Assembly: GCA_000004985.1 (NCBI GenBank)
Contig: GG738918.1
Reading direction: 5' to 3' (one strand)
DNA: 64,000 nucleotides
From: Naegleria gruberi
Lineage: Eukaryota
Shown here: positions 9,032 through 64,000 of the stretch, piece by piece
Numbering within the stretch: the first letter of the stretch is position 1
Layout of the letters: each line of letters starts with the position of its first letter
Notes under the pieces: generated by a model
Database searches by the model: none
What the model was told of the DNA's origin: nothing
Seen by the model: only the letters and a program-made list of their open reading frames with translations
Made by a program: the position numbers and the translations under genes

Positions 9032-10423
9032 ATGTCTTTGAAATTGATCATGTATTCAATTATTATTGTAAACTGTTGTTTATTCAATTTCCACTGTTTG
9101 TTTGAAAAATTAACAAAAAAAAATGAGCAAACGAAGCAGACAATTTATAAATTAATTGATTCGGAGGAAATATTCACTCTCAATAATAACAGAACAGAAG
9201 AGAAAGCAAAAAAGAAAAAACTCCAAGAAATATTCTCCAATGATGTTCTTTCAGAAATTGTATCTTTTAATAATGATTTTAAATTCGGAGTGATGACTTG
9301 TGCATTGGTTTCAAAGCAATGGTTTTCTGTTGTGAAGGAACGATCGAAACTTTCACTGCTATGTAAAAGTATTAAGAAATTACAAGGTGAATTTTTGGAG
9401 AATATTGAAAATTTGCGATTGGAAAGAAATAATAGATTCTTTGATTGTCAAATAATTGGATTGATGAAAGGATTGACAGTTCTCAGTGCTGAAAATTGTA
9501 TTGGTACAGAAGGGGTCAAGCATATTTGTAAAATGAACAATTTAACAAAACTGAATATCGAGAGAAATGAAATTGGTGAAGAAGGAGCCAAGTACATTAG
9601 CAAAATGAAACAATTAACTGAGCTCAACGTTGGATGGAACGGTATTGGTAAAGAGGGGGTTGAATTTATCAGTGAATTGAAAAATTTGACCTTACTTGAA
9701 ATTGAAGCTTGTAGGATTTGTGACGAAGGGGCTAAATCTATAAGCGAATTGAAGCAATTGACCCATCTCAATATTTCTTACAATAATATTAGTAATTTAG
9801 GATCAAAATATTTAACTGAATTGAAACAACTGACAGTTCTTACTCTTTGTGACTGTAATATTAGTGAAGAAGGATGCAAATATATTTCTGAGTTGAACCA
9901 ATTAACTGACCTCGATATTAGTAACAATGATATTGGATGCAACGGAGTTGAATATATTAGTGGAATGAAACAATTACTTTTCCTGTATATTTATGGAACT
10001 AATATGTACCCTACTGAACTTCAAAAGATCAGTGAAATGAAACAAGTAACAAACCTTAATATTTCATGGAATTATGTTGGAGATGAAGGAGCTAAATATA
10101 TTAGTGATATGAAACAATTGACTAAACTTGAGGTTGTAAGAAGTGATATTTCTACAGAAGGGGCTAAGCACATTAGTGAATTGAAACAATTGACTGATCT
10201 TAACATTGGTGAGAACAATATTGGTGGTGAAGGAGCAATTGCCATTAGCAAAATGAATCAATTGCGTATTCTAGATATTAGTGATAATAACATTGGTGGA
10301 ATAGGCGCAGAACACGTAAGCCAAATGAAACAATTAACTCATCTTGATATTAGCCACAATTGTATTGGAAATTATGGAGCTAAACGAATCAATACAATGA
10401 AACTGGTATTTCTTAGCAAATAA
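9032..10423 (+). CDS. F-box-like + RNI-type leucine-rich-repeat protein (paralog family A)
   Basis: N-terminal F-box-like segment IFSNDVLSEIVSFNNDFKFGVMTCALVSKQWFSVVKE. It is followed by about 13 tandem 24-aa LRR units of the form xNxIGxEGAKxISEMKQLTxLxIxx. Confidence 0.7.
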   Translation: MSLKLIMYSIIIVNCCLFNFHCLFEKLTKKNEQTKQTIYKLIDSEEIFTLNNNRTEEKAKKKKLQEIFSNDVLSEIVSFNNDFKFGVMTCALVSKQWFSVVKERSKLSLLCKSIKKLQGEFLENIENLRLERNNRFFDCQIIGLMKGLTVLSAENCIGTEGVKHICKMNNLTKLNIERNEIGEEGAKYISKMKQLTELNVGWNGIGKEGVEFISELKNLTLLEIEACRICDEGAKSISELKQLTHLNISYNNISNLGSKYLTELKQLTVLTLCDCNISEEGCKYISELNQLTDLDISNNDIGCNGVEYISGMKQLLFLYIYGTNMYPTELQKISEMKQVTNLNISWNYVGDEGAKYISDMKQLTKLEVVRSDISTEGAKHISELKQLTDLNIGENNIGGEGAIAISKMNQLRILDISDNNIGGIGAEHVSQMKQLTHLDISHNCIGNYGAKRINTMKLVFLSK

Positions 10424-21963: not shown

Positions 21964-24900
21964 ATGATGGAAACTTCAACAGCAATAGCAACAACAGGAC
22001 AGGAGGTAGAGCTTGGATACAACTCTCAACTTCCATCTTTTGTTAGGGACGGTATCAAGGAGGAAATTTCTAATTGGAAGAATGAAATTATTGAAGGCTT
22101 TAAAAAAGTTGATGGATTATTGTTGAGTTCGGATGAAAAAGATGAAAATACGATCAAGCCTAAATGGTTTACTATTTTAAATTCATCTATCAAATTATTT
22201 CATAGATATATAACTAATACAAAGTATCCACTAAATGTTTCTGAAAGAGTAGTCATATTTGAACTTGCTCTTAATATTCTCATCAACAAGCAATTAGATT
22301 TATATTTGGAATTAAAAGCAAAGTTAGCTAATTTAATCATTATTTTGATGAAAAACAAGTACCATAAATTATTACAACAAAATATAAAACCAATCACTTG
22401 TTGGAAGAGATTATACGAAATGTTAAGAAGTGTTTATTTTACCAAGAATAGATGTATTAGTTATAATCCATCAGGATCTTTCGGAAAGTCTATTGTCAAA
22501 CTTGTTTGTAAATTGAGAAATAATTTTGCAAGTGAAACTACTGAGGAAGTTTTGAATGAATTTACCCCAAGACTCTATTTCAGGTATGTAAATCAAATTT
22601 TATGTCCAATAGTTTACCTTTAATACTAGTGACTCAGAGTTCTTTATTTCTCAAGCATTTTTATGCTTATTCTTGCCTTCCAATACTTCTGTTGAAGTTA
22701 TTGACAAGTGGTTCAATCAAGTATTGGCCATGTGGGATTGGAGATCAAATTCACCATTCTATGATTTAAATATTGTTTCTTTATTGTACAGATTGGTAAA
22801 AGACCAAGATGGTAAAATTGATTTCAAACCTCATTTAGATTTAATATTTACTAGAATGTTACGATCAATGGATTTAAACATTGGGTCTAATATTACAAGT
22901 AGCAGTGTTGCATCTGGTGTTGCAACTTCTAAACTTGCTAAAAATGTGCAAGGAGGATCACAAAACTCAACAGCTGGCATGATTCAAGTTTTAACAGCTG
23001 CCAGTGGATATTCATATCATAGCTATCCAAATAATAATTGTTCAATCTTCTGGAAATTGTCCGATTTGAAGAACTTGCTAATGCAATATAACTCTCAACT
23101 AATTTCATATTTATTACTATCATTCCCTACTGAAACTTTAACTTATTTAAGAAGATTATTCCAATCTATTGACCAATACTATTACCCAAGTAATAATGGT
23201 GAATGGTCTAGACCATTGAGTATTTTCATTTCAGAACTATTCCGTAATGTTTCTTTGAACACTAAAGAAAGTAGCAAAGATCTAGTGGTCAGTGACGACA
23301 CTATTGAAGAATTAATTAGAATAGTTTTCCCTTCATGTAAAATGGCTCTCTTCTCCAAGTCAGTTAAGGTTTCAAAGAATGCTATTCAAGCTATCAAACA
23401 TATTTGTTTTATTAGACCATCATGTATTGTACAGGAATTGTTTGAAATTGTTTTCCATGCTTTGCAAACTTTGACTGAAGTTCACCAAATCTCAGTTGCT
23501 TTGGAACTGTTAAATACCATTATTATACCATTATTGTACCATTCTATTCCAGAAGTTAAAGATTATATGGCTGATTTGTTGAATATGGCACTTTTGGGTA
23601 TCGATACAAACGATAGCCAAAAAACCTCTCTCACAATTTCCTTCTTGAACACTCTATTCTCAATTATGCCTATTATTTCCAACAACCAATTTGTTGAAGG
23701 AACTCCATACGTAGTTGAATTGTATCAAGATTTTGCTTTAGAGTTTGTGAGAAGAGTTTTGCATGTTATGGGCGAAATGACGACACACAAGGAAGAAAGT
23801 AAGGAACAAAAGGAAGTTTACAATCACTTGTCTAAATCAATTGTATTATTCTTCCAACAATTGTCTCCAAACTTGCACAAGCAATGTCTCAACAAGATAA
23901 TTTCCTATTTACAAGACGAGTTTAAACCTGCTGCTGTAAAGCAAATTGGTGAAATTGCTAATTGTTCCGTTAATTATTTCAATAATGGAGATGATACCTA
24001 TGATCCATTTGGATTGATGATGAACTCTCTTATTTCCAGAATCACTAATCAAAAAGGTGAATTGAAGGATTTACATGATAATGAAATGGATTACTATGTT
24101 CACTTGTTAGCTAAAGTTGTTAAGGGAAATAATCAAACATTCAAACATTGCGATAAGCTTTTGCAAATCTTGAAGCTCACTTGGAATTCTGAATCCAAAT
24201 CCATTGTTAAATCATCTGGCAAACTTTTGAAGAATATTTTGCAAAGTTTAACAACAGTTTACATTTTAGAAAAGAGAAGTGTACCTCCAAATGTTTGGCG
24301 TAGTGAAGATTTCCAAAAGAACCACTTTAAATATTGGGGTCAGCTCTACAATTCCAAGAATGTTGATGCTCAATGGCACGTTCCGAATGAATCTGAACTT
24401 GAAAAGGCAACCACTATTTTCAATGATTATTCAAGGGAGTGCTTTACCACTATCAAGAATGCTACAACCAATCAGGTTACTAGAGATCAATTGCTCAATG
24501 CCTTGTTGAAGGCTAAATATATTCTCAAGGGTGCCTCTTTAATGTTAGATGAAATTAGAGATGGTCAACTTCCAGAATATACCAAACAAATTGTCAAAGA
24601 TTTCTCAAACACCAATGCTGGTTGTATTGTTATTCCGAATGACAAGTTGGAATTCACCAGAAACGACATACTTGTATTATTACAAAAATTATTGGCTGAC
24701 TTTGTTCAAAATCAATCAGTTACCAGTGACGACTCAAAGAAGAATGATGTTAGAGTCTTGATTGCGTTAACCAAGGCTATTCATATTTGTGCTGCCTATA
24801 GAAGTTTGAGCTTTACTAAAATGGTGAATATGGCAAAGATTTGGTCACTTTTGAAGCTTCACTTCTTTAAGAGTACTGTCAAGAAGTTGTTCCCAAGATG

Positions 24901-27649
24901 TTTCATCTTGGATAGATGCCAAATGTTATTCATTTCAAGAGTTTTCCAAAGAACTATTCCATGTACACAAGTTCACTTGGATGCCTTGGAAAGCTTGAAA
25001 ATTCTCTCTACCAGTTGTGAATATGCCAAAGTAAGATCAAGAGCACAAACATCTTTCATTGGAATTTTGAAGTTGTTTAACAATTCTACATTCGAAAAGT
25101 TTGTTACACCAATTATTGAAACACTTTCAAATAGGGATTCTACACATGCTATGATTAATGGTTCCATTTTCCTTTTGGAAAAGTCTTCAGTTATTAGAAG
25201 AGTAACAGATAGTTGGGTTTTAATTTCTAAACTCCTTCCATCGATCTGTAATTGTTACCATGTCGACAAATCATCAATCCAGAAGAGATTGTATGGACTC
25301 TATATGCAATATAGCACAGCATTCAAAGAGTTACCAATTAATAATCAAAAGACATTGCAATACTATAATGATACAGTGAACAGCTTGGTTAATTTATCAT
25401 ACCAACTATCACAATCATTATTCTGGAACTATCAATTGATTACTATTTCATGCTTGAATTTATTGATTCGTTCTGATAAGTCAATTATTTTACCTATTGA
25501 AGCAATCAAATGTTTCATGAATAATCTTGTCAGTGATCATGTACCGCTCAGATTACTGTGTATGAAGGCATTAGATTTTATTTTCACTCAATATAAGCCT
25601 ATTCAACCTAGAATTGAAATTACTGATTCAACACAAATCGAAAAGGTTGCTAGACATCACAAAGCTAGTGCTACCATTCAAGATATTGCTACCCAAGAAG
25701 AATTTGAAAAGACCTTGTTCCTTGACAAGTATTATATTGGCTGGAATGCTATGCCAAAGAGTATGGTCACCTATGATTACACTAAGGAAAGAATTTTCAA
25801 AGATGAAACTGTGCAATTACAACAACTGATTCGTAACACCATGTTCCAAGAAGAATATCTTTCCAAAGTGTTTTCATACTTCTCAGATGATACAAATGGA
25901 CAATCTAACAATAGAGCATTCACTAAAGCTCACGCTCAAATGTTCAAAGGTTTCTTCCAAATTATGGGAATTGAAGGTTTGAAGGTTATTGAAAAACATT
26001 TTGAACATTTGCTTTCAGCTTCTGGCACTGGTAATGCTGACGAATTTTCAAAGATTTGTTTTGCTTCTGAAATATTTGCAGGTGTTTGCAGAGGAAGCAA
26101 ACATTGGAAATTTAATGACAGAAAACAAGCTCAAGACTACTTGTTCGAAAAGATTTCAACTGTAATTGATTCTTGTTCACCTCAATGTATTGAAAGTGGT
26201 TTGAGATCATCCTTCCATTTCTGCATGTTTGATGCTGACGGCAGAAGAACCAAGCCATTGGTAGACTTCCTAACTGGAAAAGTTAACTTGGATTATGGTC
26301 TTGCTGCTGTTCAAATGAAGGTATTACAGTTGGTATTCTTCACCCTCGCCGAACTTGATTGGAGACTTGTTAAACTTTTGGAAAATTTCATTGAAGAAAA
26401 GCTTTTTAACCATCTCTCACATCCATACCAACAAATCAGAGAGCTTATTGCAAGAAATGTATCTCTTGTATTTTTGAAGTCTTGGAATCCTGTTAGAGAT
26501 GAAAACTATTTGCCAAAGTCACCATCCAGTGGAGGTCAACAAAGTCTATTTGCCCAATTCTTGAATGAATTAATCTCCAACAATGCTACTAAATTCAATA
26601 TGGATGAGAATGGATTGCTTTCTCTTCCAAGTAATATTTTCAATATTGTACAAACAGATATGAACAGATCAGAATTTATCCAAAACAAACTCATTCCAAA
26701 ATTGCAAACAGAATTCAGCAAACTCTATCAAGAATATACTCAAAAATTGTCTGAAAAATCTGCCGAACAATCACACAAGACAAAACCATCTCAAGAAGAA
26801 ATGACATTCAAATCACTTTGTAAGACAATTATTGAATCCATTGGAACTTCGATGATGTTTGGAATTACTGTCACCCTACCTTACTTTAATTCAATTCTCC
26901 CACTTTTCTTGCAATGCTTCACATGCTCAAATGATACTGACATTACTATTAGTGCTTCAGGAATTATTGCAAGAATTGGTGCATTCTTAATTCCTGCCTT
27001 TATGGTCAAGGAATTATTGTACAGTTTAATGTTTATTCAAAAGTTGCTCATGACCAATCAAGCCAACACCTCAAGTAGAAAGGCCAGATTAGTTCTTTGT
27101 TTCTTCCTTCAAAAGTTTGCCTTTAAACATCAATTCTTTATTTTAGGAACCTCAGCTGAGAATGATTTCTATAACCATTTACTCTTGTTGCTCAAGGATA
27201 AGACTGTTGAAGTTAAGGATATGGCATGCAACACATTGGCTGGTTTCATCAAAATTGCATCCGATGATAGAGTTGAAATTATCAATGCTCATTTCTCTGC
27301 CGAACATCAAAAGCATTTTGCCACTAAAAAGTCAGGCAACGTTGAACAAATTCAAAAGTTGGACGCAAACTATGTTTCTGTTGGTTTGAGTGCTTTGGCT
27401 AAAGCTTTCCCATACAGCATTCCACCATTTGTTCCACAAGTACTTGTGAAATTATCAAGATTCAGTTCTTATCAAAAATCGGAACAAGAAACTGTTGATA
27501 TTCAATTCTTGAGTGATACTATTAAGAATACTTTTACTCAATTCATGAAGACTCACCACGAACAATGGGAAGAACACAAAAAACAATTCACAGAAGATGA
27601 GCTCTACACTGTTAATCAACTTTTATATTCACCAGTTTATTATGCTTAA
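21964..27649 (+). CDS. Proteasome activator Blm10/PA200 family (HEAT-like, C-terminal YYA); probable short intron ~22584..22629
   Basis: About 1880 aa in total (206 + 1673). The protein ends ...LLYSPVYYA*, which is the HbYX-type YYA tail characteristic of Blm10/PA200. It is long and helical, with HEAT-like composition. The N-terminal ORF (21964..22583) joins the main ORF through a GTATGT donor at 22584. The TACTAG acceptor at 22629 is my best frame-consistent guess. Confidence 0.6.
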
Positions 27650-30296: not shown

Positions 30297-31727
30297 TTAC
30301 ATTAATTGGTTGTACAGACTGGAAACGTAATGCATTGGACCAAGTGGTGGATGAGGAGCATGTGTAAATTGAGTAAAGTTTGGTTTCATATCTGAACCAT
30401 TGAATCTAATGAAAGCACCCTTGTTACCAACAGAGTCACAATAATTTGGTGCAGAGAAGATAGTTATCAGTCTATTGTTTGCTTCAACTTCATAACCTGC
30501 CATCTTGACTTCGTGAGATCTAATCAATAATTCGAGACCATTGTCATCCAAAAATTTCTTTGTGACATCAGGACCAAATACTCTTGAAACACCTCTCTTA
30601 TTGAGTCCGAGCCCATTGAGTTTTTGTGGATCAGACCAAAGAATGTCGCACATTAAACCATCTTCTGGAATATCTCTCATTCTATCAATATTTTCAATAT
30701 CTTGAAGTGTAACACCTGGTTCCTTAAATCCTATACCACCGTGTAAAACAAGTACCTTACTATTAATAACACAAGCCAATGGAAGATAATTGAAAACTTC
30801 TTGGAAGAGTTCATAAACTTCACCATTGTACTTCTTGACAGTTTCAGCTTCAAATCCATAAATTTGGTTAAGATGACGACTTTCGTGATTACCTCTAGTC
30901 AAATACATGCATTCAGGATCATGTAACTTGTATGCCAATAAAGTGAAAATAACTTCACATGAGAATGAACCTCTATCAACAAAATCACCATTGAATAAAA
31001 ATGGATTTTCCTTTGATGGTCTTCCATTCAATTCGAAAATCTTTAAAAGATCATAATATTGACCATGAGTATCACCACAAACTGTAATATGTCTATCTTC
31101 TGGAACATTAATACGGAAGAGTGATTTTTCATTCTTCAATAATTTGCTAGCCATGACAAGAATTTCCATAGCATACTTGATGTGAATTTTCTTTTGATTC
31201 TTAAATCTTTCAACCATATCTTCAACAAATTCCTTTGTAATAACTTCACCTAATCTTACACCATCATATGATTCTTCAACATCAATTACGTTATAGTTAA
31301 TTTCTTCGGAAATATGAGTTTTTGTACCACCAATAGCTTCCATAAATTTCTGATGTTTCAACTCCTTTTTACATTGAGCAACTCTTTCTTTAATTAATTT
31401 ATCATTAGGATGAAGTTTAAGAGCATCATTAAAATCTGTTAAAGCATCTTCCAATTTGGATAAACCAATATGGGCCATTCCGCGTCTATAGTAAGCCTTT
31501 GTGTTTTGTGGATCAAGGCTGATAGCCTTTGCAGCATCATCAAGAGCTGCTCCGTAATTTTCCAAGTGAGTATTGGAAAGAGCACGATTACAATAGAAAA
31601 CAGCATCTTCATAAAGTTCTATAGCCTTTGTATAATAATCAATACTCTCCTCATACTTTTTCTCTTTGAAAAATTGATTTCCTTTAGCTTTAAATTCTTC
31701 AGCAGCTTGTTTTTTTGATTCCTCCAT
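30297..31727 (-). CDS. PPP5C: Serine/threonine protein phosphatase 5 (TPR + PPP catalytic domain)
   Basis: The N-terminus carries three TPR units (AEEFKAKGNQFFKEKKYEESIDYYTKAIEL...). The catalytic domain has GDTHGQYYDL, GDFVDRGSFS, LTRGNHE and the SAPNYC motifs. 476 aa with no intron. Confidence 0.9.
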   Translation of the reverse strand: MEESKKQAAEEFKAKGNQFFKEKKYEESIDYYTKAIELYEDAVFYCNRALSNTHLENYGAALDDAAKAISLDPQNTKAYYRRGMAHIGLSKLEDALTDFNDALKLHPNDKLIKERVAQCKKELKHQKFMEAIGGTKTHISEEINYNVIDVEESYDGVRLGEVITKEFVEDMVERFKNQKKIHIKYAMEILVMASKLLKNEKSLFRINVPEDRHITVCGDTHGQYYDLLKIFELNGRPSKENPFLFNGDFVDRGSFSCEVIFTLLAYKLHDPECMYLTRGNHESRHLNQIYGFEAETVKKYNGEVYELFQEVFNYLPLACVINSKVLVLHGGIGFKEPGVTLQDIENIDRMRDIPEDGLMCDILWSDPQKLNGLGLNKRGVSRVFGPDVTKKFLDDNGLELLIRSHEVKMAGYEVEANNRLITIFSAPNYCDSVGNKGAFIRFNGSDMKPNFTQFTHAPHPPLGPMHYVSSLYNQLM

Positions 31728-32276: not shown

Positions 32277-34544
32277 ATGTCATCACAATTGCGAATGGGA
32301 TGCTGTTATTTCATAATGCTTTCCATCATTCTTTTGTATCATCATGTTTATTCGGTGGTGGCTCTTCAAAATTTTGAGACGAAAGTCCAAAGCATTTCTA
32401 ATAATTTTCAAGTTATTCCAATAGAGAATTTAAAGGAAGGGAATGTAATTTATGGAGTTGCGGAATATAACTATGTATTCATTAGCAAATCTTTAAATAT
32501 AACTAATCTGGAAATGTTACTTTCGTATATGAATACAACAGATAGAACTATTAGAAATTCAGCACCTCTACAATTCGGAATGGAAAGAAGTTTAACTCAA
32601 TTAGTGGAAACATACTTTTACTATCAAAACATCTCATCCTATTCGATTTCTTTCATTTCATTTGCTCCACTAATTTGCAGAACTAGAAATCCATTCGAAA
32701 TATTAAGTGGAATCATTACAAGTGAAAGCAGCTTTGCAGAACAAGTTAGATGCTACCGAGATAGAGTGAATACTCAAGAATCTACTCGATATATCAATTC
32801 GAGAGATTTCATTCCAATACCTTTATTCCCAAATAAGGTAATTATTGGAAGAAATGTTTCAACTAGTAGTGAAATTAGTCAATATTCGGAAAGTGATTTG
32901 AATTCTCTTGAAGTGAGCATACTCCCATTGACATTGGATTATGAAAAAAGTGGTTGCAAGAGCAATCCTCAAAAATTTGATGCACTGAGAATTTCACTCA
33001 CTCGTGGAATTTCAAATTTCACCAATTTTGATTTGGAATGGATGAAAAATGTGGCTGGTGTGAAGGAGTTGAATTATGATAGATCATTATATGAATATTT
33101 ATTTCAGAGATTTGTGAATCGAAATAATTTACAAAATTTAACAAATAGTATTGAAATTTCACAAAGTTTACTTTCTTCTGATTGCTATTATTGTAATTTT
33201 GGATCTTTTGGAGATCCGAGAGAAACATTGACTGATTTGTGGATTATTCCAATAGCTGTGCTTACATTGGTGTATTTTATTTTATTATTTGCTACAAAGA
33301 GTTATTCGAAACCTTATCTTCAAAGAAGATTGGTAGTACCTTACCTGTTGCCTATTTGTAATTTACTATTTGAGGCTCTATCAGTGGATTCTCTATTGGT
33401 TCTGGTTTACAATTGTGAACCGAAATATTTGTTGATTTCTGTATTCTTTGGAATTATCATGATTTTCCTTTACATGATAACAGTTATTCGATTCTATTAT
33501 TTGAGAAACCTTTACAAAATTGTATCAGATTCTAAATTTTACAAAGTTCACAAATATTTAACCTCTACATCATTTGGAATTGGTTTCACACTCATAATGT
33601 CAGCTCTCTTAACAATCATTTTCATGGTTCCTGTATTTGCAACATTGAGCTTTGAGACTAACATTATTTATATTTCTCAAAATGTGACAAATGCAAGTTA
33701 TGTGGTCATTGGAAGTGCATTTGCGTTGGCTGCTAGTGTTGTTGATGCAATTTTGAACAGAAAAAAGATTTCCAAAAATGGAATACTCTATTATTTATTT
33801 GCAGATGATCCTCTTTATGTGAGAATTGACTTGTTTTTGACTGGTATTATCATTATTATCATTCTACTCACAATTGTCTTCCAATTATTCGAATTGCTAT
33901 ATTTGGTGGGAGTTGTTAGAACTCTAGTTACAATAATGGCTCTAATGATAAGTGGAGGAACAGCAATTATAGCAGAAATGATAAGAAGATTCGTATATAG
34001 AAATAGAAAGATAACAGAGAATGATTCAGATTTGGAAAAACATCTTTCTCAAAGCAGCGACTTTTTTGAGCTATTCCAAGAATATGCATCGAAAGAGTTT
34101 AGTTTGGAGAATATCATGTTCTTTGATATTATTCACGAAATCAAAACCGAATATGTAACAGTGGAAACTATGAAACACATTGAGGAAAACTTTATGAGAA
34201 ATTATTCCAAATATGAGGTGAATATTTCCTTTTCTTCTAGGAGAAAGTTTTACGAATTGTTTGATACAATGGAATTCAAAGTAGACAAAATGGAAGTATC
34301 AAGTTCAGAAATGAATTTATTGAGTGGTAGAGCTTCTATGAAATTATCAACATCAGACATGTCTCAATTGAGTATTACAGAATCTAAGAAATCATCTAAT
34401 ATCACTCTAAAGCAATTGAAAGATGCAGTCTATATGGACATTATCGGAAATATGAAAGATACCTACGGAAGATTACAATTAACACCACAATTTGCCAAAT
34501 GGGAATCAGTTTACAATTTACAAAATAAGGCAGCAATTATTTAA
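32277..34544 (+). CDS. Seven-transmembrane receptor-like protein with C-terminal RGS domain (fungal GprK-type architecture) and a large N-terminal ectodomain
   Basis: Signal peptide-like N-terminus. About 300 aa ectodomain with many N-x-S/T sites. Seven hydrophobic helices (LWIIPIAVLTLVYFILLF ... TLVTIMALMISGGTAIIAEMI). Then the RGS core FSLENIMFFDIIHEIKTEY, compared with FSEENLEFWLACEEFKK. Confidence 0.65.
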   Translation: MSSQLRMGCCYFIMLSIILLYHHVYSVVALQNFETKVQSISNNFQVIPIENLKEGNVIYGVAEYNYVFISKSLNITNLEMLLSYMNTTDRTIRNSAPLQFGMERSLTQLVETYFYYQNISSYSISFISFAPLICRTRNPFEILSGIITSESSFAEQVRCYRDRVNTQESTRYINSRDFIPIPLFPNKVIIGRNVSTSSEISQYSESDLNSLEVSILPLTLDYEKSGCKSNPQKFDALRISLTRGISNFTNFDLEWMKNVAGVKELNYDRSLYEYLFQRFVNRNNLQNLTNSIEISQSLLSSDCYYCNFGSFGDPRETLTDLWIIPIAVLTLVYFILLFATKSYSKPYLQRRLVVPYLLPICNLLFEALSVDSLLVLVYNCEPKYLLISVFFGIIMIFLYMITVIRFYYLRNLYKIVSDSKFYKVHKYLTSTSFGIGFTLIMSALLTIIFMVPVFATLSFETNIIYISQNVTNASYVVIGSAFALAASVVDAILNRKKISKNGILYYLFADDPLYVRIDLFLTGIIIIIILLTIVFQLFELLYLVGVVRTLVTIMALMISGGTAIIAEMIRRFVYRNRKITENDSDLEKHLSQSSDFFELFQEYASKEFSLENIMFFDIIHEIKTEYVTVETMKHIEENFMRNYSKYEVNISFSSRRKFYELFDTMEFKVDKMEVSSSEMNLLSGRASMKLSTSDMSQLSITESKKSSNITLKQLKDAVYMDIIGNMKDTYGRLQLTPQFAKWESVYNLQNKAAII

Positions 34545-36101: not shown

Positions 36102-37199
36102 TCAAACATCAATGCAAACAAGAAATTTTAAAGAGGTTAGTGATGTTAATAATGTGACTCCTTCAGCACCAATTCTATTGTTACCAATATCAAGTGATGT
36201 CAATTGTTTCATTTCACTTATGAATTTGACTCCTTCAGCACCAATTTGATTTGCAGAAGCAGCAAGTGATGTTAATTGTTTAAGTTCACTTATTGATTCA
36301 GCTCCTTTTACACCAATTTGATTCGCAGAAATAGCAAGTGATGTTAATTGTTTAAGTTCACTTATTGATTTGGCTCCTTCATCACCGATTTGATTCGCAG
36401 AAATATAGAGTAATGTTAATTGTTCCAGTTCACTTATTGATTTGGCTCCTTCATCACCAATTTGATTTAGACAAATATCAAGTGATGTTAATTGTTTCAT
36501 TTCACTTATTGAATTAGCTCCTTTTACACCAATTCCATTATAGCATATATCAACTGATGTTAATCGCTTCATTTCACTTATGAATTTGACTCCTTCATCA
36601 CCAATTTGATTTAGACCAATATAAAGTACTGTTAATTGTTTCATTTCACTTATTGATTTGGCTCCTTCGTTACCAAATTTGTTGCTACCAATATTAAGTG
36701 ATGTTAATTGTTTCATTCCACTTATGAAATTGGCTCCTTTATCACCAATTTCATTGTTAGAAATATTAAGTGATGTTAATTGCTTCATTTCACTAATTGA
36801 TTTAGCTCCCTCTACACCAACTTGATTACAATAAATATCAAGTAATGTTAATTGTTTCATTTCACTTATAAATTTGAGTTTTTCTATGGGTTGAAGCAAC
36901 CAACAAGAAAATTTAACATTGACAATACTATTCACGAATTGACTTTTCATGCATAATTCAATTCTTTTTTCTGTAAGATTCTTTTTAAATTGAATGACAA
37001 GTTTTGCTCGTTCCTTGATCACATGAAAGAATTGTTTTGAAATTAGAGAACAATTTTGCAAAATAAAACACGAATCATCAATCATGGAAATGATTTCAAA
37101 ACAAACATCATCCGAAAATATAACATCATTGGAAAATACTTGTCGTTGGAGTTTTTGCAATTTTTGCACAAGATTTTTCTGATTTGGTGCCTCTTTCAA
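36102..37199 (-). CDS. F-box-like + RNI-type LRR protein (paralog family A); N-terminal region appears frameshifted relative to an upstream ATG at 37269
   Basis: Near-identical 24-aa repeats NQIGDEGAKSISELKQLTSL. The N-terminal block VFSNDVIFSDDVCFEIISMIDDSCFILQNCSLISKQFFHVIKERAKLVI is almost identical to the 58436..59587 gene. The in-frame start is non-ATG. MSQLERQENDDQLIN, starting at the ATG at 37269, resembles the paralog N-terminus, but it is in the -1 frame and hits TAA. Confidence 0.6.
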   Translation of the reverse strand: MKEAPNQKNLVQKLQKLQRQVFSNDVIFSDDVCFEIISMIDDSCFILQNCSLISKQFFHVIKERAKLVIQFKKNLTEKRIELCMKSQFVNSIVNVKFSCWLLQPIEKLKFISEMKQLTLLDIYCNQVGVEGAKSISEMKQLTSLNISNNEIGDKGANFISGMKQLTSLNIGSNKFGNEGAKSISEMKQLTVLYIGLNQIGDEGVKFISEMKRLTSVDICYNGIGVKGANSISEMKQLTSLDICLNQIGDEGAKSISELEQLTLLYISANQIGDEGAKSISELKQLTSLAISANQIGVKGAESISELKQLTSLAASANQIGAEGVKFISEMKQLTSLDIGNNRIGAEGVTLLTSLTSLKFLVCIDV

Positions 37200-53144: not shown

Positions 53145-54266
53145 AAGATCAATTTTTCTTTTCTCTAAAGTTGAGACACTTCCAAATCATAGGTATCAGT
53201 AGATTTCAATAACAGGAATGAAATACAGAAACAACAGTTATAATTTGGTCTCACCCGATAGGTATTTCCTGTTTTTTTCAGTTTCACCAATTTGTTTCTT
53301 ACAATCCACTCAGAAACATCTCTATTACAACATAATAAACTGAAAAGCAAACCAATAAACACTGCATCAATCAAGAAGAGGAACAATAACACTAAACCAC
53401 TTGGTAATAATCCTATGAATAGTGGATAATCAATTTCTGGTTTGTAAAGATAGAGTTGATAAATTTCAACTCCACTCTTAGAGCTATATGATGTCATTTT
53501 ACATTTGAGAGCTCCATCTTGATTTTTTTCCTTAATACATTCAGGGACATTGCATTCATATGAAAATACAGTGGGATATTGTATTTTGCTTTCTCTAAGT
53601 TTAACATAATAGAAATATTTCAGTCTTGTTGGGATACTATCAAACATACATCCAATACTTGTTGAGCTATTATTCGGTTGACAACATGGAAGAGTATTAA
53701 AATTATTACAACTCGAATTCCAATTAGTGTTGCATTCCACACATTCTGGATACGAAACCCTTCCAATAGTACTGTTCAAAACTTGAACAGAAGAAACAAT
53801 CCTCTCACAATCATTGAACGAACTCTCTACATGACTCGCAGAACCTAAAGCCAAGCCAAGACCTCCAACCAATAACAACATCCCCAGAATCACAACAAAT
53901 AGTAAACAAGCTGTATAAAAACAGTTGCACTCAGTAGCATATCTCATACTGTTGACAAGTCTGTCCGTGTTTTGTTCCTCGCGGTTTCGTTTGATTTCAA
54001 CTTTTTCTTCATATTCAATCCTTTTCTGATTCCAAAATTTTGGCTTTTCCGTCTCAAAAATTGAATAACATTGCCTATTGATATGTGAAAATGATGAATA
54101 ACTACTCGGAGTAATAAATTCAAGAATAATTGTCAGCTCATCATCATTTAATTTGTGAAAATTTCCCTTCACTTGCTTTCTTGTCATTTTTTTTCACAAG
54201 TTTGAACTCTACAGACCATGACAGGAGATCTTCACTTCAACAGTCAAAGAGAGAATTTCTTGTTTT
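53145..54266. repeat. Left arm of a ~1.15 kb inverted duplication (gene plus 5' and 3' flanks)
   Basis: The 5' flank 54188..54266 and the 3' flank AATTTTTCTTTTCTCT are reverse-complementary to 55050..55168 and ~56200..56215 respectively. Confidence 0.6.
53165..54187 (-). CDS. Cys-rich type-with-two-TM hypothetical protein, paralog A of an inverted gene pair
   Basis: 340 aa: MTRKQVKGNFHKLNDDELTIILEFITPSSYSSFSHINRQCYSIFETEKPKFWNQK.... Then the first TM (LLFVVILGMLLLVGGLGLALG), a Cys/N-glyco-rich segment (ECVECNTNWNSSCNNFNTLPCCQPNNSSTSIGCMFD), the second TM (LVLLFLFLIDAVFIGLLFSLLCC) and a short tail ending ...DTYDLEVSQL. Confidence 0.6.
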   Translation of the reverse strand: MTRKQVKGNFHKLNDDELTIILEFITPSSYSSFSHINRQCYSIFETEKPKFWNQKRIEYEEKVEIKRNREEQNTDRLVNSMRYATECNCFYTACLLFVVILGMLLLVGGLGLALGSASHVESSFNDCERIVSSVQVLNSTIGRVSYPECVECNTNWNSSCNNFNTLPCCQPNNSSTSIGCMFDSIPTRLKYFYYVKLRESKIQYPTVFSYECNVPECIKEKNQDGALKCKMTSYSSKSGVEIYQLYLYKPEIDYPLFIGLLPSGLVLLFLFLIDAVFIGLLFSLLCCNRDVSEWIVRNKLVKLKKTGNTYRVRPNYNCCFCISFLLLKSTDTYDLEVSQL

Positions 54267-55049: not shown

Positions 55050-56215
55050 ACAAAACAAGAAATTCTCTCTTTGACTCTTGAAGTGAAGAAGATTGTCAAT
55101 CTCCTAGCATGGTCTATTAAGTTCAAACTCATGGTGTTGTGTTGGTTCAAACTTGGTGTGAAAAAAAAATGACAAGAAAGCAAGCGAAGGGAAATTTTCA
55201 CAAATTAAATGATGAGCTGACAATTATTCTTGAATTTATTCCTCCGAGTAGTTATTCATCATTTTCACATATCAATAGGCAATGTTATTCAATTTTTGAG
55301 ACGGAAAAGCCAAAATTTTGGAATCAGAAATGGATTGAATATGAAGAAAAAGTTGAAATCAAACGAAACCTCGAGGAGCAAAACATGCACAGAATTGTCA
55401 ACACTATGAGACATGCTGCTGAGTGCAACCTTTTTTACATGGTTTTGCCTTTATTAATAGTTACGATTCTGGGGATGTCGTTATTGGCAGGAGGTCTTGC
55501 CTTGTCTTTTAGTTCTATGAGTCATGCAGAGAGTTGGTTTAAGGATTGTGAGAGAAATGTTTCATCTATTCAAGTTTTGAACAGTACTATTGGAAGGGTT
55601 TCGTATCCAGAATGTGTGGAATGCAACACTAACTGGAATTCAAGTTGTAATAATTTTAATATTCTTCCATGTTGTCAACCGAATAATAGCTCAACAAGTA
55701 TTGGATGTATGTTTGATAGTATTCCAACAAGAGTGAAATATTTCTTTAATTTTACAGTTAAAGATTACAAAGAAATGCATTATTCTTCAGTTTTTTCATA
55801 TGAATGCAATGTCACTGAATGCATTAAGGAAAATTATCAAGATGGAACTCTCAAATGTAAAATAACCTCATATAATACTAAGCGTGGATCATTTTATCAA
55901 CTATATGTATACAAGCCAGAAATTGATTATCCACTGTTTATAAGATTATTACCCAGTGGTTTAGTTTTATTGTTCCTTTTCTTGATTGATTTAGTGTTTA
56001 TTAGTTTGCTTTTCACTTTATTTATCGGGTTTACTTGTAAGAGAGACATGTTTGGATGGATTGTAAGAAACAAATTGATGAAATTGAAAAAAATAGGAAA
56101 TACCTATAGGGTGAGGCCAAGTTGTTGTTGTTTCTGTATTTCATTCCTGTTTTTGAAATCTACTGATACCTATGATTTAGAAGTGTCTCAACTTTAGAGA
56201 AAAGAAAAATTTGGC
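55050..56215. repeat. Right arm of the inverted duplication; spacer between the arms ~54267..55049
   Basis: The reverse complement of 55050..55168 aligns to 54188..54266 (TTTTCACA.GTTTGAAC...CATG..AGGAGAT...CTTCACTTCAA.AGTCAAAGAGAGAATTTCTTGTTTTG) with indels. Confidence 0.6.
55169..56197 (+). CDS. Cys-rich two-TM hypothetical protein, paralog B (inverted copy of 53165..54187)
   Basis: Collinear with paralog A at roughly 75-80% amino-acid identity. It starts MTRKQAKGNFHKLNDELTIILEFIPPSSYSSFSHINRQCYSIFETEKPKFWNQK and ends ...DTYDLEVSQL. The true ATG is at 55169. Confidence 0.6.
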   Translation: MTRKQAKGNFHKLNDELTIILEFIPPSSYSSFSHINRQCYSIFETEKPKFWNQKWIEYEEKVEIKRNLEEQNMHRIVNTMRHAAECNLFYMVLPLLIVTILGMSLLAGGLALSFSSMSHAESWFKDCERNVSSIQVLNSTIGRVSYPECVECNTNWNSSCNNFNILPCCQPNNSSTSIGCMFDSIPTRVKYFFNFTVKDYKEMHYSSVFSYECNVTECIKENYQDGTLKCKITSYNTKRGSFYQLYVYKPEIDYPLFIRLLPSGLVLLFLFLIDLVFISLLFTLFIGFTCKRDMFGWIVRNKLMKLKKIGNTYRVRPSCCCFCISFLFLKSTDTYDLEVSQL

Positions 56216-58435: not shown

Positions 58436-59587
58436 TCACTTATCCTTCACAATTTCATTGTAACCTATATCAAGTGATGTTAACTGTTTCATTTCACTAA
58501 TGAATTTGACTCCTTCATCACCAATTTGATTTCCACCAATATAAAGTGATTTTAATTGTTTCATTTCACTTATGAATTTGGCTCCTTCAATACCAATTTG
58601 ATTGTTATAAATATTAAGTGATATTAATTGTTTCATTTCACTTATCAATTTGGCTCCTTCATCACCAATTTGATTTCCACCAATTTCAAGTGATGTTAAT
58701 TGTTTCATTTCACTTATTGGTATGACTCCTTCAACACCAATTTCATTTCCACTAATATCAAGTGATGTTAATTGTTTCATTTCATTTATAAATTTGGCTC
58801 CTTCATCACCAATTTGATTGTTATAAATACTAAGTGATTTTAATTGTTTCATTTCACTTATGAATCTGGCTCCTTCGGCGCCAATATGATTGTTATTAAT
58901 ACTAAGTAATGTTAAATGTTTCATTTCACTTATAGATTTGGCTCCTTTATCACCAATTCTATTGTTATTAAAATCAAGTGATGTTAATTGTTTCAGTTCA
59001 CTGATTGATTTTACTCCTTCATCACCAATTCCATTTCCACTAATATCAAGTGATGTTAAATGTTTCATTTCATTTATGAATTTGACTCCTACAACACCAA
59101 TTCGATTGTAACCTATATCAAGTGATGTTAATTGTTTCATTTCACTTATAAATTTGGCTCCTTCATCACCTATTCGATTTTCGCTAATATCAAGTGATTT
59201 TAATTGTTTCATTTCAGTTATGAATTTGACTTGTATAGAGTCAAGCAACCTTCTAGAAAATTTAAGATTAACAATACTATTCATAAATTGGCTTTTCATG
59301 CATAATTCAATCCTTGTTTCTGTAAATTTTTGTTTAAATTTAATAACAAGTTTTGAACGTTCCTTGATCACATTAAAGAATTGTTTTGAAATCAAGGAAC
59401 AATTATTCAAAATAAACCACGAATCATCAATCATGGAAATTATTTCAAAACAAACATCATCTGAAAATATTTCTTGTTCAAGCTTGACAACTTTTACTTT
59501 CCCTTCCATGTTAGTATTATTATTATTGATCATGAATAGCTCTTCCGAAATTAGTTGCTTTTCAAAATCTTGTCTTTGTTTACTCAT
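58436..59587 (-). CDS. F-box-like + RNI-type LRR protein (paralog family A)
   Basis: True ATG at 59587 (MSKQRQDFEKQLISEE...). The N-terminal block IFSDDVCFEIISMIDDSWFILNNCSLISKQFFNVIKERSKLVI matches the 36102 gene. About 12 tandem 24-aa LRRs of the form NQIGDEGAKFISEMKQLTSL. Confidence 0.7.
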   Translation of the reverse strand: MSKQRQDFEKQLISEELFMINNNNTNMEGKVKVVKLEQEIFSDDVCFEIISMIDDSWFILNNCSLISKQFFNVIKERSKLVIKFKQKFTETRIELCMKSQFMNSIVNLKFSRRLLDSIQVKFITEMKQLKSLDISENRIGDEGAKFISEMKQLTSLDIGYNRIGVVGVKFINEMKHLTSLDISGNGIGDEGVKSISELKQLTSLDFNNNRIGDKGAKSISEMKHLTLLSINNNHIGAEGARFISEMKQLKSLSIYNNQIGDEGAKFINEMKQLTSLDISGNEIGVEGVIPISEMKQLTSLEIGGNQIGDEGAKLISEMKQLISLNIYNNQIGIEGAKFISEMKQLKSLYIGGNQIGDEGVKFISEMKQLTSLDIGYNEIVKDK

Positions 59588-59681
59588 TTTTTTTGGCAAG
59601 GAGCATTACAATGAAAAAGAAGGAAGTAAATTGATTTAGAAGAGTTATTGAGAATATAAAGATGAGCTATAATAGTATGTA

Positions 59682-62486: not shown

Positions 62487-62873
62487 GAAGAATTGTTGTT
62501 GATGATGATGAATTTGTTAATACATATATATGAGACTACATCAGACTACACCAATTCCTATTCTCTGATCAGCTTGCTTATATATTATAGGTAGCTACCT
62601 AGACCTTGTTCATGTATTTTGTAATTTAGAATGATTAATATTATTATTGTATAATAATTGTGTATTATAACCTCATCATCATAGTGAGAGTAAAAGAACA
62701 GAAAGAAGAATAATTATCATCAAACTGGAATGATCTCTTCCTACTTGTAGTGTATACAATAAACTCCACTTTATATGGAGTATTAATCCTCTCTAATTTA
62801 TTATCAATTTAGTCAATCCATTCTCCTCAATATAATCTTCTTCTTATAATATTCGAAAATTTAGAATTACAAT

Positions 62874-64000
62874 TTATTTTGATTGAACCAAAGCTTGTAA
62901 ATATCTTCTCTGGTGTTCCCTAATTGAATACTCTGTAATATCCTTAAAGACAGTCAACAAATTATTCTCATCAAAGGCATTCAACACTCTCACTAACATG
63001 GATGGTCCAGCATTCTCATCATTTGGATCGACACAACATTCTCCTGGATTGAGTAGTAATTGTCGAGTCTTTACACTTGAGGAATACTTATCAACAATGA
63101 ATTGAATGCAATCATCAATGTTCTGTCCATTCTTATCAGAAGGAAAGTCATCAAAGTGAGATGCAAATGATTGGTTGACTAGTTTTTGTTCCAAAACGTC
63201 TTTCTTATTGAAAAGTAGGACGAAAGGAAGTTTGGCAAATGAAGGATTATAGAGCAAGTTCATGAAAATATCGAAACTTTCTTTCCATCTTGGAGTTTCT
63301 CCATCTTCAAAACAATTCGTATCAAATTCTGATAAGGAAACAACAAATAGAATGACATCTGCTGAATTAAATTGGTGAATCCACTTTTTTCTTTCATGTC
63401 TGGATCCTCCCATGTCAATCATTGAGACAGTGACAGCATCTTCAACTCTGTACTTTAATTCTTGTACTCCAAGAGTCTTTTCTCTCAAAAGTAAGACATC
63501 TCTCAATGTTGGAACATAATCATCATTGAAAACTCTATCAAAATTGGTAAAAAAACTAATCAAGGTCAATCAGGAATTATTCAGTTACTGAGATTACTTA
63601 CTATTCTGCGTTATCGTAGACTCTAAATTCATTTCTTCTCTTAAATGACTCTTGAATTCCTTCATCATTCCATAACTTGACAAAAAACTCACAAAATTCC
63701 TTTGAAACTTTACAATTTCCACTCACAGTATACAAACTCTCAACTCCATCCATCTCACTAACTTTATCAGCAAAATCAAAAGCTTTTGCTTTCAATTCTT
63801 CTCCACCTCGAATATCAATTGCTAAATCTTCACTTCCCTCAATGACCCATCTCATATTATGGAGAACATTCTCTCTAATAACTTGAACGAAACCTTTCAA
63901 ATCATTCTCATTGTAAAATGTAGAAACGTCAATGTCAATGAGACTAGTTGATCTCTGAGCAGGTCCTTCACATAGATATTTCATTAGTTTAAAGAGAAGA
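62874..64000 (-). CDS. Divergent heterotrimeric G-protein alpha subunit, 3' part (gene runs off the window end); intron 63556..63601
   Basis: The upstream exon (through 63602) has the helical-domain block FVKLWNDEGIQESFKRRNEFRVYDNAE. Donor is TA|GTAAGT and acceptor GATTAG|T. The downstream exon (63555..62874) reads YFFTNFDRVFNDDYVPTLRDVLLLREKTLGVQELKYRVEDAVTVSMIDMGGSRHERKKWIHQFNSADVILFVVSLSEFD...LLFNKKDVLEQKL. This compares with the G-alpha blocks RVKTTGI, DVGGQRSERKKWIHCFE and FLNKKDLF. Confidence 0.75.

Follow-up and report, generated by a model that had tools for sequence, protein, structure and literature searches.

Within a 64,000-nucleotide stretch of Naegleria gruberi DNA (contig GG738918.1 of assembly GCA_000004985.1; the whole stretch is here called the window), the minus strand at positions 62874..64000 carries part of a gene for a heterotrimeric G-protein alpha subunit (G-alpha) in which a serine takes the place of the catalytic glutamine of switch II. 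The gene is securely a real, intact and mis-annotated G-alpha paralog of N. gruberi, and among the sequences compared the glutamine-to-serine change is private to it. The best explanation, to which we give a probability of about 55%, is that it encodes an intact, lineage-specific G-alpha that would bind GTP, hydrolyse it very slowly and be a poor substrate for regulator of G-protein signalling (RGS) proteins. The switch-II Gln is among the most conserved of G-alpha residues, and its somatic mutation drives human tumours. A natural Gln-to-Ser change in an otherwise intact protein constitutes a ready-made test of whether alpha subunits that stay permanently in the GTP-bound state have a part in Naegleria signalling, a question of some relevance given that many Naegleria G-alphas self-activate and depend on seven-transmembrane (7TM) RGS proteins for switching off.

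Loss of the switch-II glutamine

Minus-strand translation gives ...VTVSMIDMGGSRHERKKWIHQF... within an uninterrupted final exon of 226 codons. In the switch II or G3 box of this exon (DMGGSRHERKKW, residues 371-382; 63381..63416, minus strand, by translation), Ser375, encoded by TCC at 63402..63404, replaces the catalytic Gln and aligns exactly on Gln204 of human Gαi1, for which a reference sequence 100% identical to the PDB chains was used. The box reads DMGGS, so that of the canonical DxGGQ the Asp and the Gly-Gly pair are kept and the Gln is not. The residue now present is polar, which sets the protein apart from the HAS-GTPases, defined by a hydrophobic residue at the catalytic Gln position.

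A sequence-only reading of this DNA had already reported the substitution, and it stands on the translation, the Gαi1 alignment and an independent contig. That reading had itself named a wrong frame or a misplaced intron as the way in which a Gln might have been overlooked. This possibility was examined and rejected: the motif lies ~150 nucleotides (nt) inside a 679-nt exon, its flanks align residue for residue with G-alphas, and no Gln emerges from another frame. With the nearest splice site that far off, the frame in which the motif is read is secure. An error in the reference sequence was likewise rejected, since the same TCC is carried by an independently assembled metagenome contig, L001 (ENA ERZ929261, 796 nt), which is 99.75% identical to positions 62872..63667 of the window, has the same intron and differs by only 2 nt, one synonymous and one changing Val to Ile. 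To reach TCC from CAA or CAG takes two or more nucleotide changes, the shortest route passing through Pro, and the substitution is thus not a fresh single-base change.

The contig derives from run ERR1078381 of project PRJEB11402, whose sample holds either a very close relative of N. gruberi strain NEG-M or that strain itself; a literature search found no paper on the project.

Gene structure and the public gene models

The window encodes the C-terminal 359 residues of the protein, as judged from the spliced translation, which ends ...ALVQSK at a TAA stop codon (62874..62876, minus strand). By translation, the last coding exon (62877..63555, minus strand; 679 nt, comprising 226 codons and the third base of a split Tyr codon) covers residues 324-550, that is, switch I, switch II, the G4 and G5 boxes and helix α5 of the Ras-like domain. 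It is preceded by a 46-nt spliceosomal intron of phase 2, GTAAGT...TTGATTAG (63556..63601, minus strand), supported by translation and alignment, and then by an upstream coding exon that is cut at the window edge (63602..64000, minus strand, by translation) and that supplies the end of helix α1 and the entire all-helical domain (residues 192-323). Left unspliced, the upstream frame meets a TAG and then a TAA right at the donor site. Splicing rebuilds the split TA/T Tyr codon, joining ...RVYDNAE to FFTNFDRVFNDDYVPT..., and the resulting junction, DNAE/Y/FFTNFDRV, aligns with no gap to Willaertia DSAEYFFNELDKI, to DSAEYLFKNIQRI of the nearest homologs and to other G-alphas. The intron that the sequence-only reading had to assume is therefore a genuine GT-AG intron with a gap-free junction.

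The same reading had expected the 5' part of the gene beyond position 64000, and the P-loop and N-terminus do lie past that base; the missing part was recovered as protein from a public model, P0001, a 323-residue "predicted protein [Naegleria gruberi]" whose C-terminal 132 residues are 100% identical to the upstream exon. The sequence of P0001 stops precisely after ...DNAE, indicating that the public model reads into the intron. A second public model, P0007 (XP_002670217.1 / EFC37473.1, NAEGRDRAFT_74848, 179 residues), starts MGGSRHERKKW and is identical to the remaining downstream exon; the two are adjacent fragments on one 222,118-nt N. gruberi contig. The public annotation thus splits one gene into two "predicted proteins" because the intron was not called, and, because of that split, protein databases do not show the gene as a full G-alpha, and surveys of the family are liable to miss or miscount it.

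Joining P0001 to the downstream exon yields a protein of 550 residues. It starts MGIGVSA, a myristoylation-type MGxxxS motif of which Met1-Gly2 is invariant in the G-alpha alignment, and ~175 residues rich in Ser, Asn and Pro precede the G-alpha core, the N-terminal region ahead of the upstream exon measuring ~190 residues. The P-loop, GAGEVGKS, follows the Ser/Asn/Pro-rich stretch and leads into the remainder of the core, with its Ras-like and helical domains.

An intron of 46 nt is very short, and no statistics on intron length in N. gruberi were found in the literature, so another short intron in the window served as a local comparison. This is a candidate 45-nt GTATGT...TAG intron (22585..22629, plus strand) that joins the open reading frames (ORFs) 21964..22623 and 22673..27649 and resembles the G-alpha intron in size and consensus; the two frames encode a PSME4/Blm10-like proteasome activator. 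With a second candidate intron of ~45 nt in the same window, such short introns look normal for the N. gruberi genome.

Family membership, fold and active-site residues

The spliced 359-residue product matches the Pfam G-alpha family (PF00503) with E 6.9e-73 and a score of 246 bits, where the gathering cutoff is 48.8; the match spans positions 49-331 of the 333 in the profile. At E < 1e-3 the product matches 353 G-alpha sequences in the PDB, the top solved structure being N. fowleri Gα7 (PDB 6NE6, E 1.4e-43). An all-helical domain is present between G1/α1 and switch I, the exon at 63602..64000 aligning to approximately residues 49-153 of Gαi1 and keeping the conserved Trp131 and the D150-x-A-x-Y154 motif. 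The AlphaFold2 model of the downstream exon (pLDDT 87.4, pTM 0.82) superposes on Gα13, Gαs, Gαi1 and Gαt with a query TM-score of ~0.76 and a root-mean-square deviation of 2-3 Å. Its sole low-confidence block (pLDDT ~55) is a lineage-specific loop insertion between helix α4 and strand β6, LLLNPGECCVDPNDENAGPS (residues 490-509; 63000..63059, minus strand, by alignment), which corresponds to a gap in every other aligned sequence. The alignment reveals no obvious amphipathic αN helix ahead of the P-loop, and the same holds for N. fowleri Gα7.

The nucleotide-binding apparatus is otherwise largely preserved. In Gαi1 numbering, the conserved residues are G40, G42, E43, G45, K46, S47, R178, T181, G183, D200, G202, G203, R205, R208, K210, W211, N269, K270, D272 and A326. 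The G1 motif GxGxxGKS is recognizable in P0001 as GAGEVGKS, with its Lys and Ser kept, and is atypical in carrying S44V and T48L. By alignment, switch I (G2) reads LLLREKTLGV (residues 345-354; 63465..63494, minus strand) and keeps both the Arg finger, R348 (R178 of Gαi1), and the Mg2+-binding Thr, T351 (T181), and the G4 box NKKD (residues 440-443; 63198..63209, minus strand, by alignment) is intact, so that the retention of the switch-I Arg and of NKKD proposed by the sequence-only reading is confirmed. The G5 box, LNAFDE (residues 515-520; 62967..62984, minus strand, by alignment), had been singled out as divergent. Divergent it is, and yet not in a manner special to this gene: the guanine-contacting Ala326 is kept, and the neighbouring residues are typical of the clade, with LSAIDQ in Willaertia and VTALDK in N. 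fowleri Gα7, a protein that is biochemically active (PMC9283941).

Beyond the loss of Gln204, which the sequence-only reading had correctly noted, lie changes that it missed along with the ~190-residue N-terminal region, namely S44V, T48L, Q52L and S206H. Of 38 alignable columns with a conservation of at least 90%, five are altered (S44V, T48L, Q52L, V201M and Q204S), all of them in the P-loop/α1 region or in switch II, and as many altered columns of this class occur in just 13 of 214 representatives. Leu48, Leu52 and His206 are found in none of the 222 G-alphas aligned. The last of these, unique to this protein as His377, falls at an RGS-contact site, and position 206 is a strong determinant of RGS action, S206D alone abolishing the GTPase-activating protein (GAP) activity of RGS proteins on Gαi1 (PMC12505447). 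A second RGS-contact residue, Thr182 in switch I, is replaced by Leu, a change common to two Willaertia relatives.

Relatives and the rarity of the substitution

In a MAFFT alignment of 222 near-full-length, diverse G-alphas gathered from homology searches, Gln204 is present in 218 (98.2%), the exceptions carrying Ser, Glu, Ala or His. The 150 top-ranked representatives contributed to a set of 157 switch-II motifs, of which ~10 are without it, including those of the Leptophrys, Willaertia and chytrid proteins described below. Judged from these comparisons, natural loss of the Gln in G-alphas is rare but recurrent. The closest relatives all retain it, including the Willaertia proteins P0002 and P0010, the N. 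gruberi paralogs P0173 and P0171 and the N. fowleri proteins P0003 and P0005. That Ser might be a trait of the whole subfamily, as the sequence-only reading had allowed, was therefore rejected, and on present sampling the change belongs to this N. gruberi gene alone.

The relatives are themselves distant. A HMMER search with the downstream exon against 1.84 billion cluster representatives returned, besides the gene itself, no sequence above 41% identity, and searches of 90%-clustered collections likewise found nothing above that value. In a neighbour-joining tree the protein groups with P0002 and P0010 of Willaertia magna at 60% bootstrap, and shared derived residues agree with this placement. 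A review (PMC8584482, citing Anantharaman et al. 2011) credits N. gruberi with 44 G-alphas and describes catalytic motifs that deviate in Naegleria, Dictyostelium and plants.

Functional predictions and alternatives

The arginine finger is kept, as are the residues that coordinate Mg·GTP, and the protein would most likely still bind guanine nucleotide. With Ser375 in place of the Gln that orients the attacking water, with S44V, T48L and Q52L in the P-loop and helix α1, and with T182L and S206H at RGS-contact positions, it would most likely hydrolyse GTP very slowly and be a poor RGS substrate. If nucleotide exchange is spontaneous, as in several Naegleria G-alphas, the protein would reside mostly in the GTP form, and its signalling state would be set not by a GTPase timer but by its abundance, its localisation or its partners. 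This functional reading draws on three precedents: replacement of Gln204 in Gαi1, Gln227 in Gαs or Gln222 in AtGPA1 abolishes GTPase activity or leaves the protein GTP-locked (PMC8584482; bioRxiv 10.1101/795088), a P-loop variant slows the GTPase of N. fowleri Gα1 and blocks RGS action on it (PMC9283941), and N. fowleri Gα5 and Gα7 self-activate (PMC9283941). We infer on this basis that the product of the N. gruberi gene, which is presumed to be expressed, binds nucleotide, hydrolyses GTP slowly and is insensitive to RGS proteins. The GTPase-deficient or otherwise atypical G-alpha that the sequence-only reading had predicted would, by analogy with the Gln204 and Gln227 mutants, be the most reasonable inference.

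Several observations weigh against a slow, GTP-holding G-alpha. No search returned a transcript-derived sequence across the exon junction, and the N-terminal 191 residues, P-loop included, were taken from the public protein model P0001 and not from DNA. No ortholog, from which the persistence of the Ser through evolution could be judged, was found in N. fowleri or other Naegleria, in protein databases or in the JGI metagenomes; the sole second sequence, L001, differs by too few nucleotides for an estimate of the ratio of nonsynonymous to synonymous substitution. By Tajima's test the gene evolves faster than P0002 with four of five outgroups (p 0.0005 to 0.05), which also fits relaxed constraint, and its retention of the family consensus stands at about the 5th percentile in every conservation class. 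Lastly, T48L and S44V could lower nucleotide affinity instead.

The missing orthologs, the accelerated rate relative to P0002 and the low consensus retention would also fit a redundant paralog, one of ~44 G-alphas in N. gruberi, that lost its Gln under relaxed selection and is drifting towards a pseudogene with no specific function. The several unique changes at near-invariant positions point in the same direction, as does the failure of the public annotation to model the gene as one unit, which suggests that expressed sequence tags did not support it. The state of the gene nevertheless speaks against such drift. Some 550 codons are open in a genome of 33% GC, in which a random frame of 226 codons would be open with an estimated probability of ~1e-8, and the intron has intact splice sites of the canonical type. 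Of the residues examined for GTP binding, Mg binding and the Arg finger (the G1 Lys and Ser, the switch-I Arg and Thr, DxGG, NKxD and the G5 Ala), none has been lost, and the structure model of the downstream exon is confident. The path from CAR to TCC implies that the Gln was lost long ago, and over that time an unconstrained gene would be expected to have acquired stops or frameshifts. Consensus retention, moreover, is graded, at 87% for columns conserved at 90% or more, 55% for those at 70-90% and 42% for those at 50-70%, so that moderately conserved columns show losses about twice as often as the most conserved. Such grading argues that the fold and the nucleotide pocket are still under constraint and are not decaying freely, and in Tajima's test against P0010 the gene is no faster with three of five outgroups. 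Drift towards a pseudogene is accordingly an unlikely account, if one with substance.

The P-loop and the N-terminus bear on a different proposal, in which the protein has become a nucleotide-independent decoy or scaffold comparable to the plant XLG proteins, with weakened nucleotide binding, and sequesters Gβγ, RGS proteins or effectors. Tight nucleotide binding is seen in Ras, where Val and Ala stand at the equivalents of S44 and T48, which counts against reading much into the unique P-loop/α1 substitutions (T48L, S44V and Q52L) that, with the long N-terminal extension of a protein of 550 residues, recommend this idea. XLG2 does provide a precedent, being a G-alpha-like protein with drastically reduced nucleotide binding (bioRxiv 10.1101/795088), but it is without the P-loop Lys, the DxxG Asp, the Arg finger, the Gln and Ala326, whereas the N. 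gruberi protein is without the Gln only, and the low-complexity N-terminus holds no Cys-rich domain and no domain of XLG type bearing a nuclear localization signal. We regard a decoy role as quite improbable. Assignment to the XLG family itself was rejected, given that of the XLG-type losses only that of the Gln is seen and that the N-terminus is Ser/Asn/Pro-rich low-complexity sequence.

There is finally the prospect that the protein still cycles, by means of alternative catalysis either in cis, through Ser375 and/or His377, or in trans, through a dedicated GAP that contributes the missing residue. Retention of the Arg finger and of all phosphate- and Mg-binding residues would be odd for a protein that never hydrolyses GTP; Ser and His are polar and can hydrogen-bond water; and the Naegleria repertoire of RGS and GAP proteins is very large (PMC9283941). 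However, by homology to Gαi1 position 206 faces the RGS surface and not the γ-phosphate (PMC12505447), the Asn thumb of RGS proteins in known complexes merely orients the G-alpha's own Gln (bioRxiv 10.1101/795088), and no precedent among G-alphas was found in the literature searched. Continued cycling thus seems improbable to much the same degree as, or a shade more than, the decoy role. A stronger form of it, in which Ser375 and His377 embody an altered catalytic logic served by a dedicated RapGAP-like Naegleria GAP in trans or by an alternative cis mechanism, is very improbable indeed; were it true, heterotrimeric G proteins would have a mode of regulation that has not been described for them.

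Genomic context

The sequence-only reading had also drawn attention to a PP5 phosphatase and a 7TM-RGS receptor elsewhere in the window. The first is real: TPR repeats, a PPP5 region and a Metallophos domain are present in a PP5-type Ser/Thr phosphatase at 30297..31727 (minus strand). The second, a 755-residue ORF at 32277..34544 (plus strand), is plausible as a 7TM-RGS protein from hydrophobicity and a weak RGS match, having a signal peptide, an ectodomain of ~290 residues, seven hydrophobic segments (residues 321-569) and a C-terminal match to RGS (PF00615) that remains below the gathering score (E 0.0019; 19 bits against a cutoff of 23.9). N. fowleri encodes 28 7TM-RGS proteins and 79 other RGS proteins (PMC9283941). 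A distance of ~28-31 kb (~28 kb for the receptor candidate), occupied by about a dozen ORFs, separates both genes from the G-alpha gene. No evidence was found for a functional link of the G-alpha gene to either of them; we see little significance in this context, and the proximity is probably incidental.

Two further groups of ORFs in the window deserve mention. The divergently oriented, near-identical ORFs 53165..54187 (minus strand) and 55139..56197 (plus strand), reading MTRKQ.KGNFHKLND..ELTIILEFI.PSSYSSFSHINRQCYSIFETEKPKFWNQK... and ending ...STDTYDLEVSQL, have the look of an uncharacterised gene that was recently duplicated in inverted orientation; one of the pair was scanned against Pfam and gave no match. 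Three LRR-like ORFs, at 9032..10423 (plus strand), 36102..37199 (minus strand) and 58436..59599 (minus strand), appear to represent a lineage-specific expansion. The first and third of these were scanned and match Pfam LRR_6, and the second and third share an N-terminal box, FSDDVCFEIISMIDDS.FIL.NCSLISKQFF.VIKER.

Comparison with known systems

The heterolobosean G-alphas, represented by N. fowleri Gα7 (6NE6) and by P0002 and P0010 of Willaertia magna (KAL96-series), have the same domain architecture and the same G1, G2, G4 and G5-Ala residues as the N. gruberi protein. The two Willaertia proteins share with it, in addition, T182L, an L-(S/N)-A-(I/F)-D G5 box, the SLSEFD..C.E motif and a C-terminal extension. 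They differ in that these relatives have the Gln and the canonical S44, T48 and Q52, lack the ~150-residue low-complexity N-terminal insertion, and are just 36-41% identical to it.

The Rap small GTPases, which belong to a GTPase family separate from G-alpha, present a chemically similar situation, in that an otherwise intact GTPase has Thr61, a small polar residue with a hydroxyl group, in place of Gln61. Rap relies on an Asn thumb that RapGAP supplies in trans, and we know of no RapGAP-equivalent GAP for G-alphas.

Among engineered and mutant proteins, Gαi1 Q204L, Gαs Q227L/R, Gαq Q209L and AtGPA1 Q222L have lost the same residue while the Arg finger and nucleotide-binding residues are intact, and GTP-locked, RGS-resistant signalling is expected of them (PMC8584482; bioRxiv 10.1101/795088). 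Unlike these mutants, the N. gruberi change is natural and in the germ line, it introduces Ser rather than Leu or Arg, and it is accompanied by further changes in the P-loop and switch II. A natural active-site variant is provided by N. fowleri Gα1, in which an atypical P-loop, 23-TAQ-25, goes with slow hydrolysis and loss of the RGS response (Bosch, Jeck & Siderovski 2022, PMC9283941). There, the variation falls at Gαi1 positions 41-43 and the Gln is kept; here, GAGE is kept and the Gln is lost. The plant proteins XLG1-3 combine, as does the N. gruberi protein, an N-terminal extension with loss of the catalytic Gln, but their extensions are unrelated to that of N. gruberi, and they are also without the P-loop Lys, the DxxG Asp, the Arg finger and Ala326, all kept here, and bind nucleotide very weakly (bioRxiv 10.1101/795088).

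Other natural G-alphas found to lack the Gln belong to lineages unrelated to this gene and group apart from it, most of them having P-loops that are more degenerate. Leptophrys vorax P0075 (DVGGSRGERKKW, LIDVGGSRGERKKW) underwent the same Gln-to-Ser change independently and has a degenerate P-loop, GGASSGKSS; it comes from a transcriptome (EukProt) and is therefore expressed. In Willaertia P0156 (DVGGHREERRNW) the Gln was independently replaced by His. The tandem G-alphas of two chytrids, P0018 of Terramyces sp. JEL0728 and P0030 of Kappamyces sp. JEL0680, have Leu at the Gln position. Both of their domains read DVSGL, with Ser for the first Gly of the GG pair, and both carry GSSDSGKS P-loops; they could represent a conserved, hydrophobic-substituted G-alpha subfamily or fused gene models, and they would fit the HAS-GTPase class better than the N. 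gruberi protein does. A metagenomic protein of 2766 residues (P0015, ENA) contains eight stretches that match the C-terminal half of G-alpha and several GxxxxGKS loops, with no canonical DxGGQ.

Set beside these systems, the N. gruberi gene is of an already recognised kind, that of the lineage-specific protist G-alphas with deviant catalytic motifs, and what is new is this formerly fragmented member.

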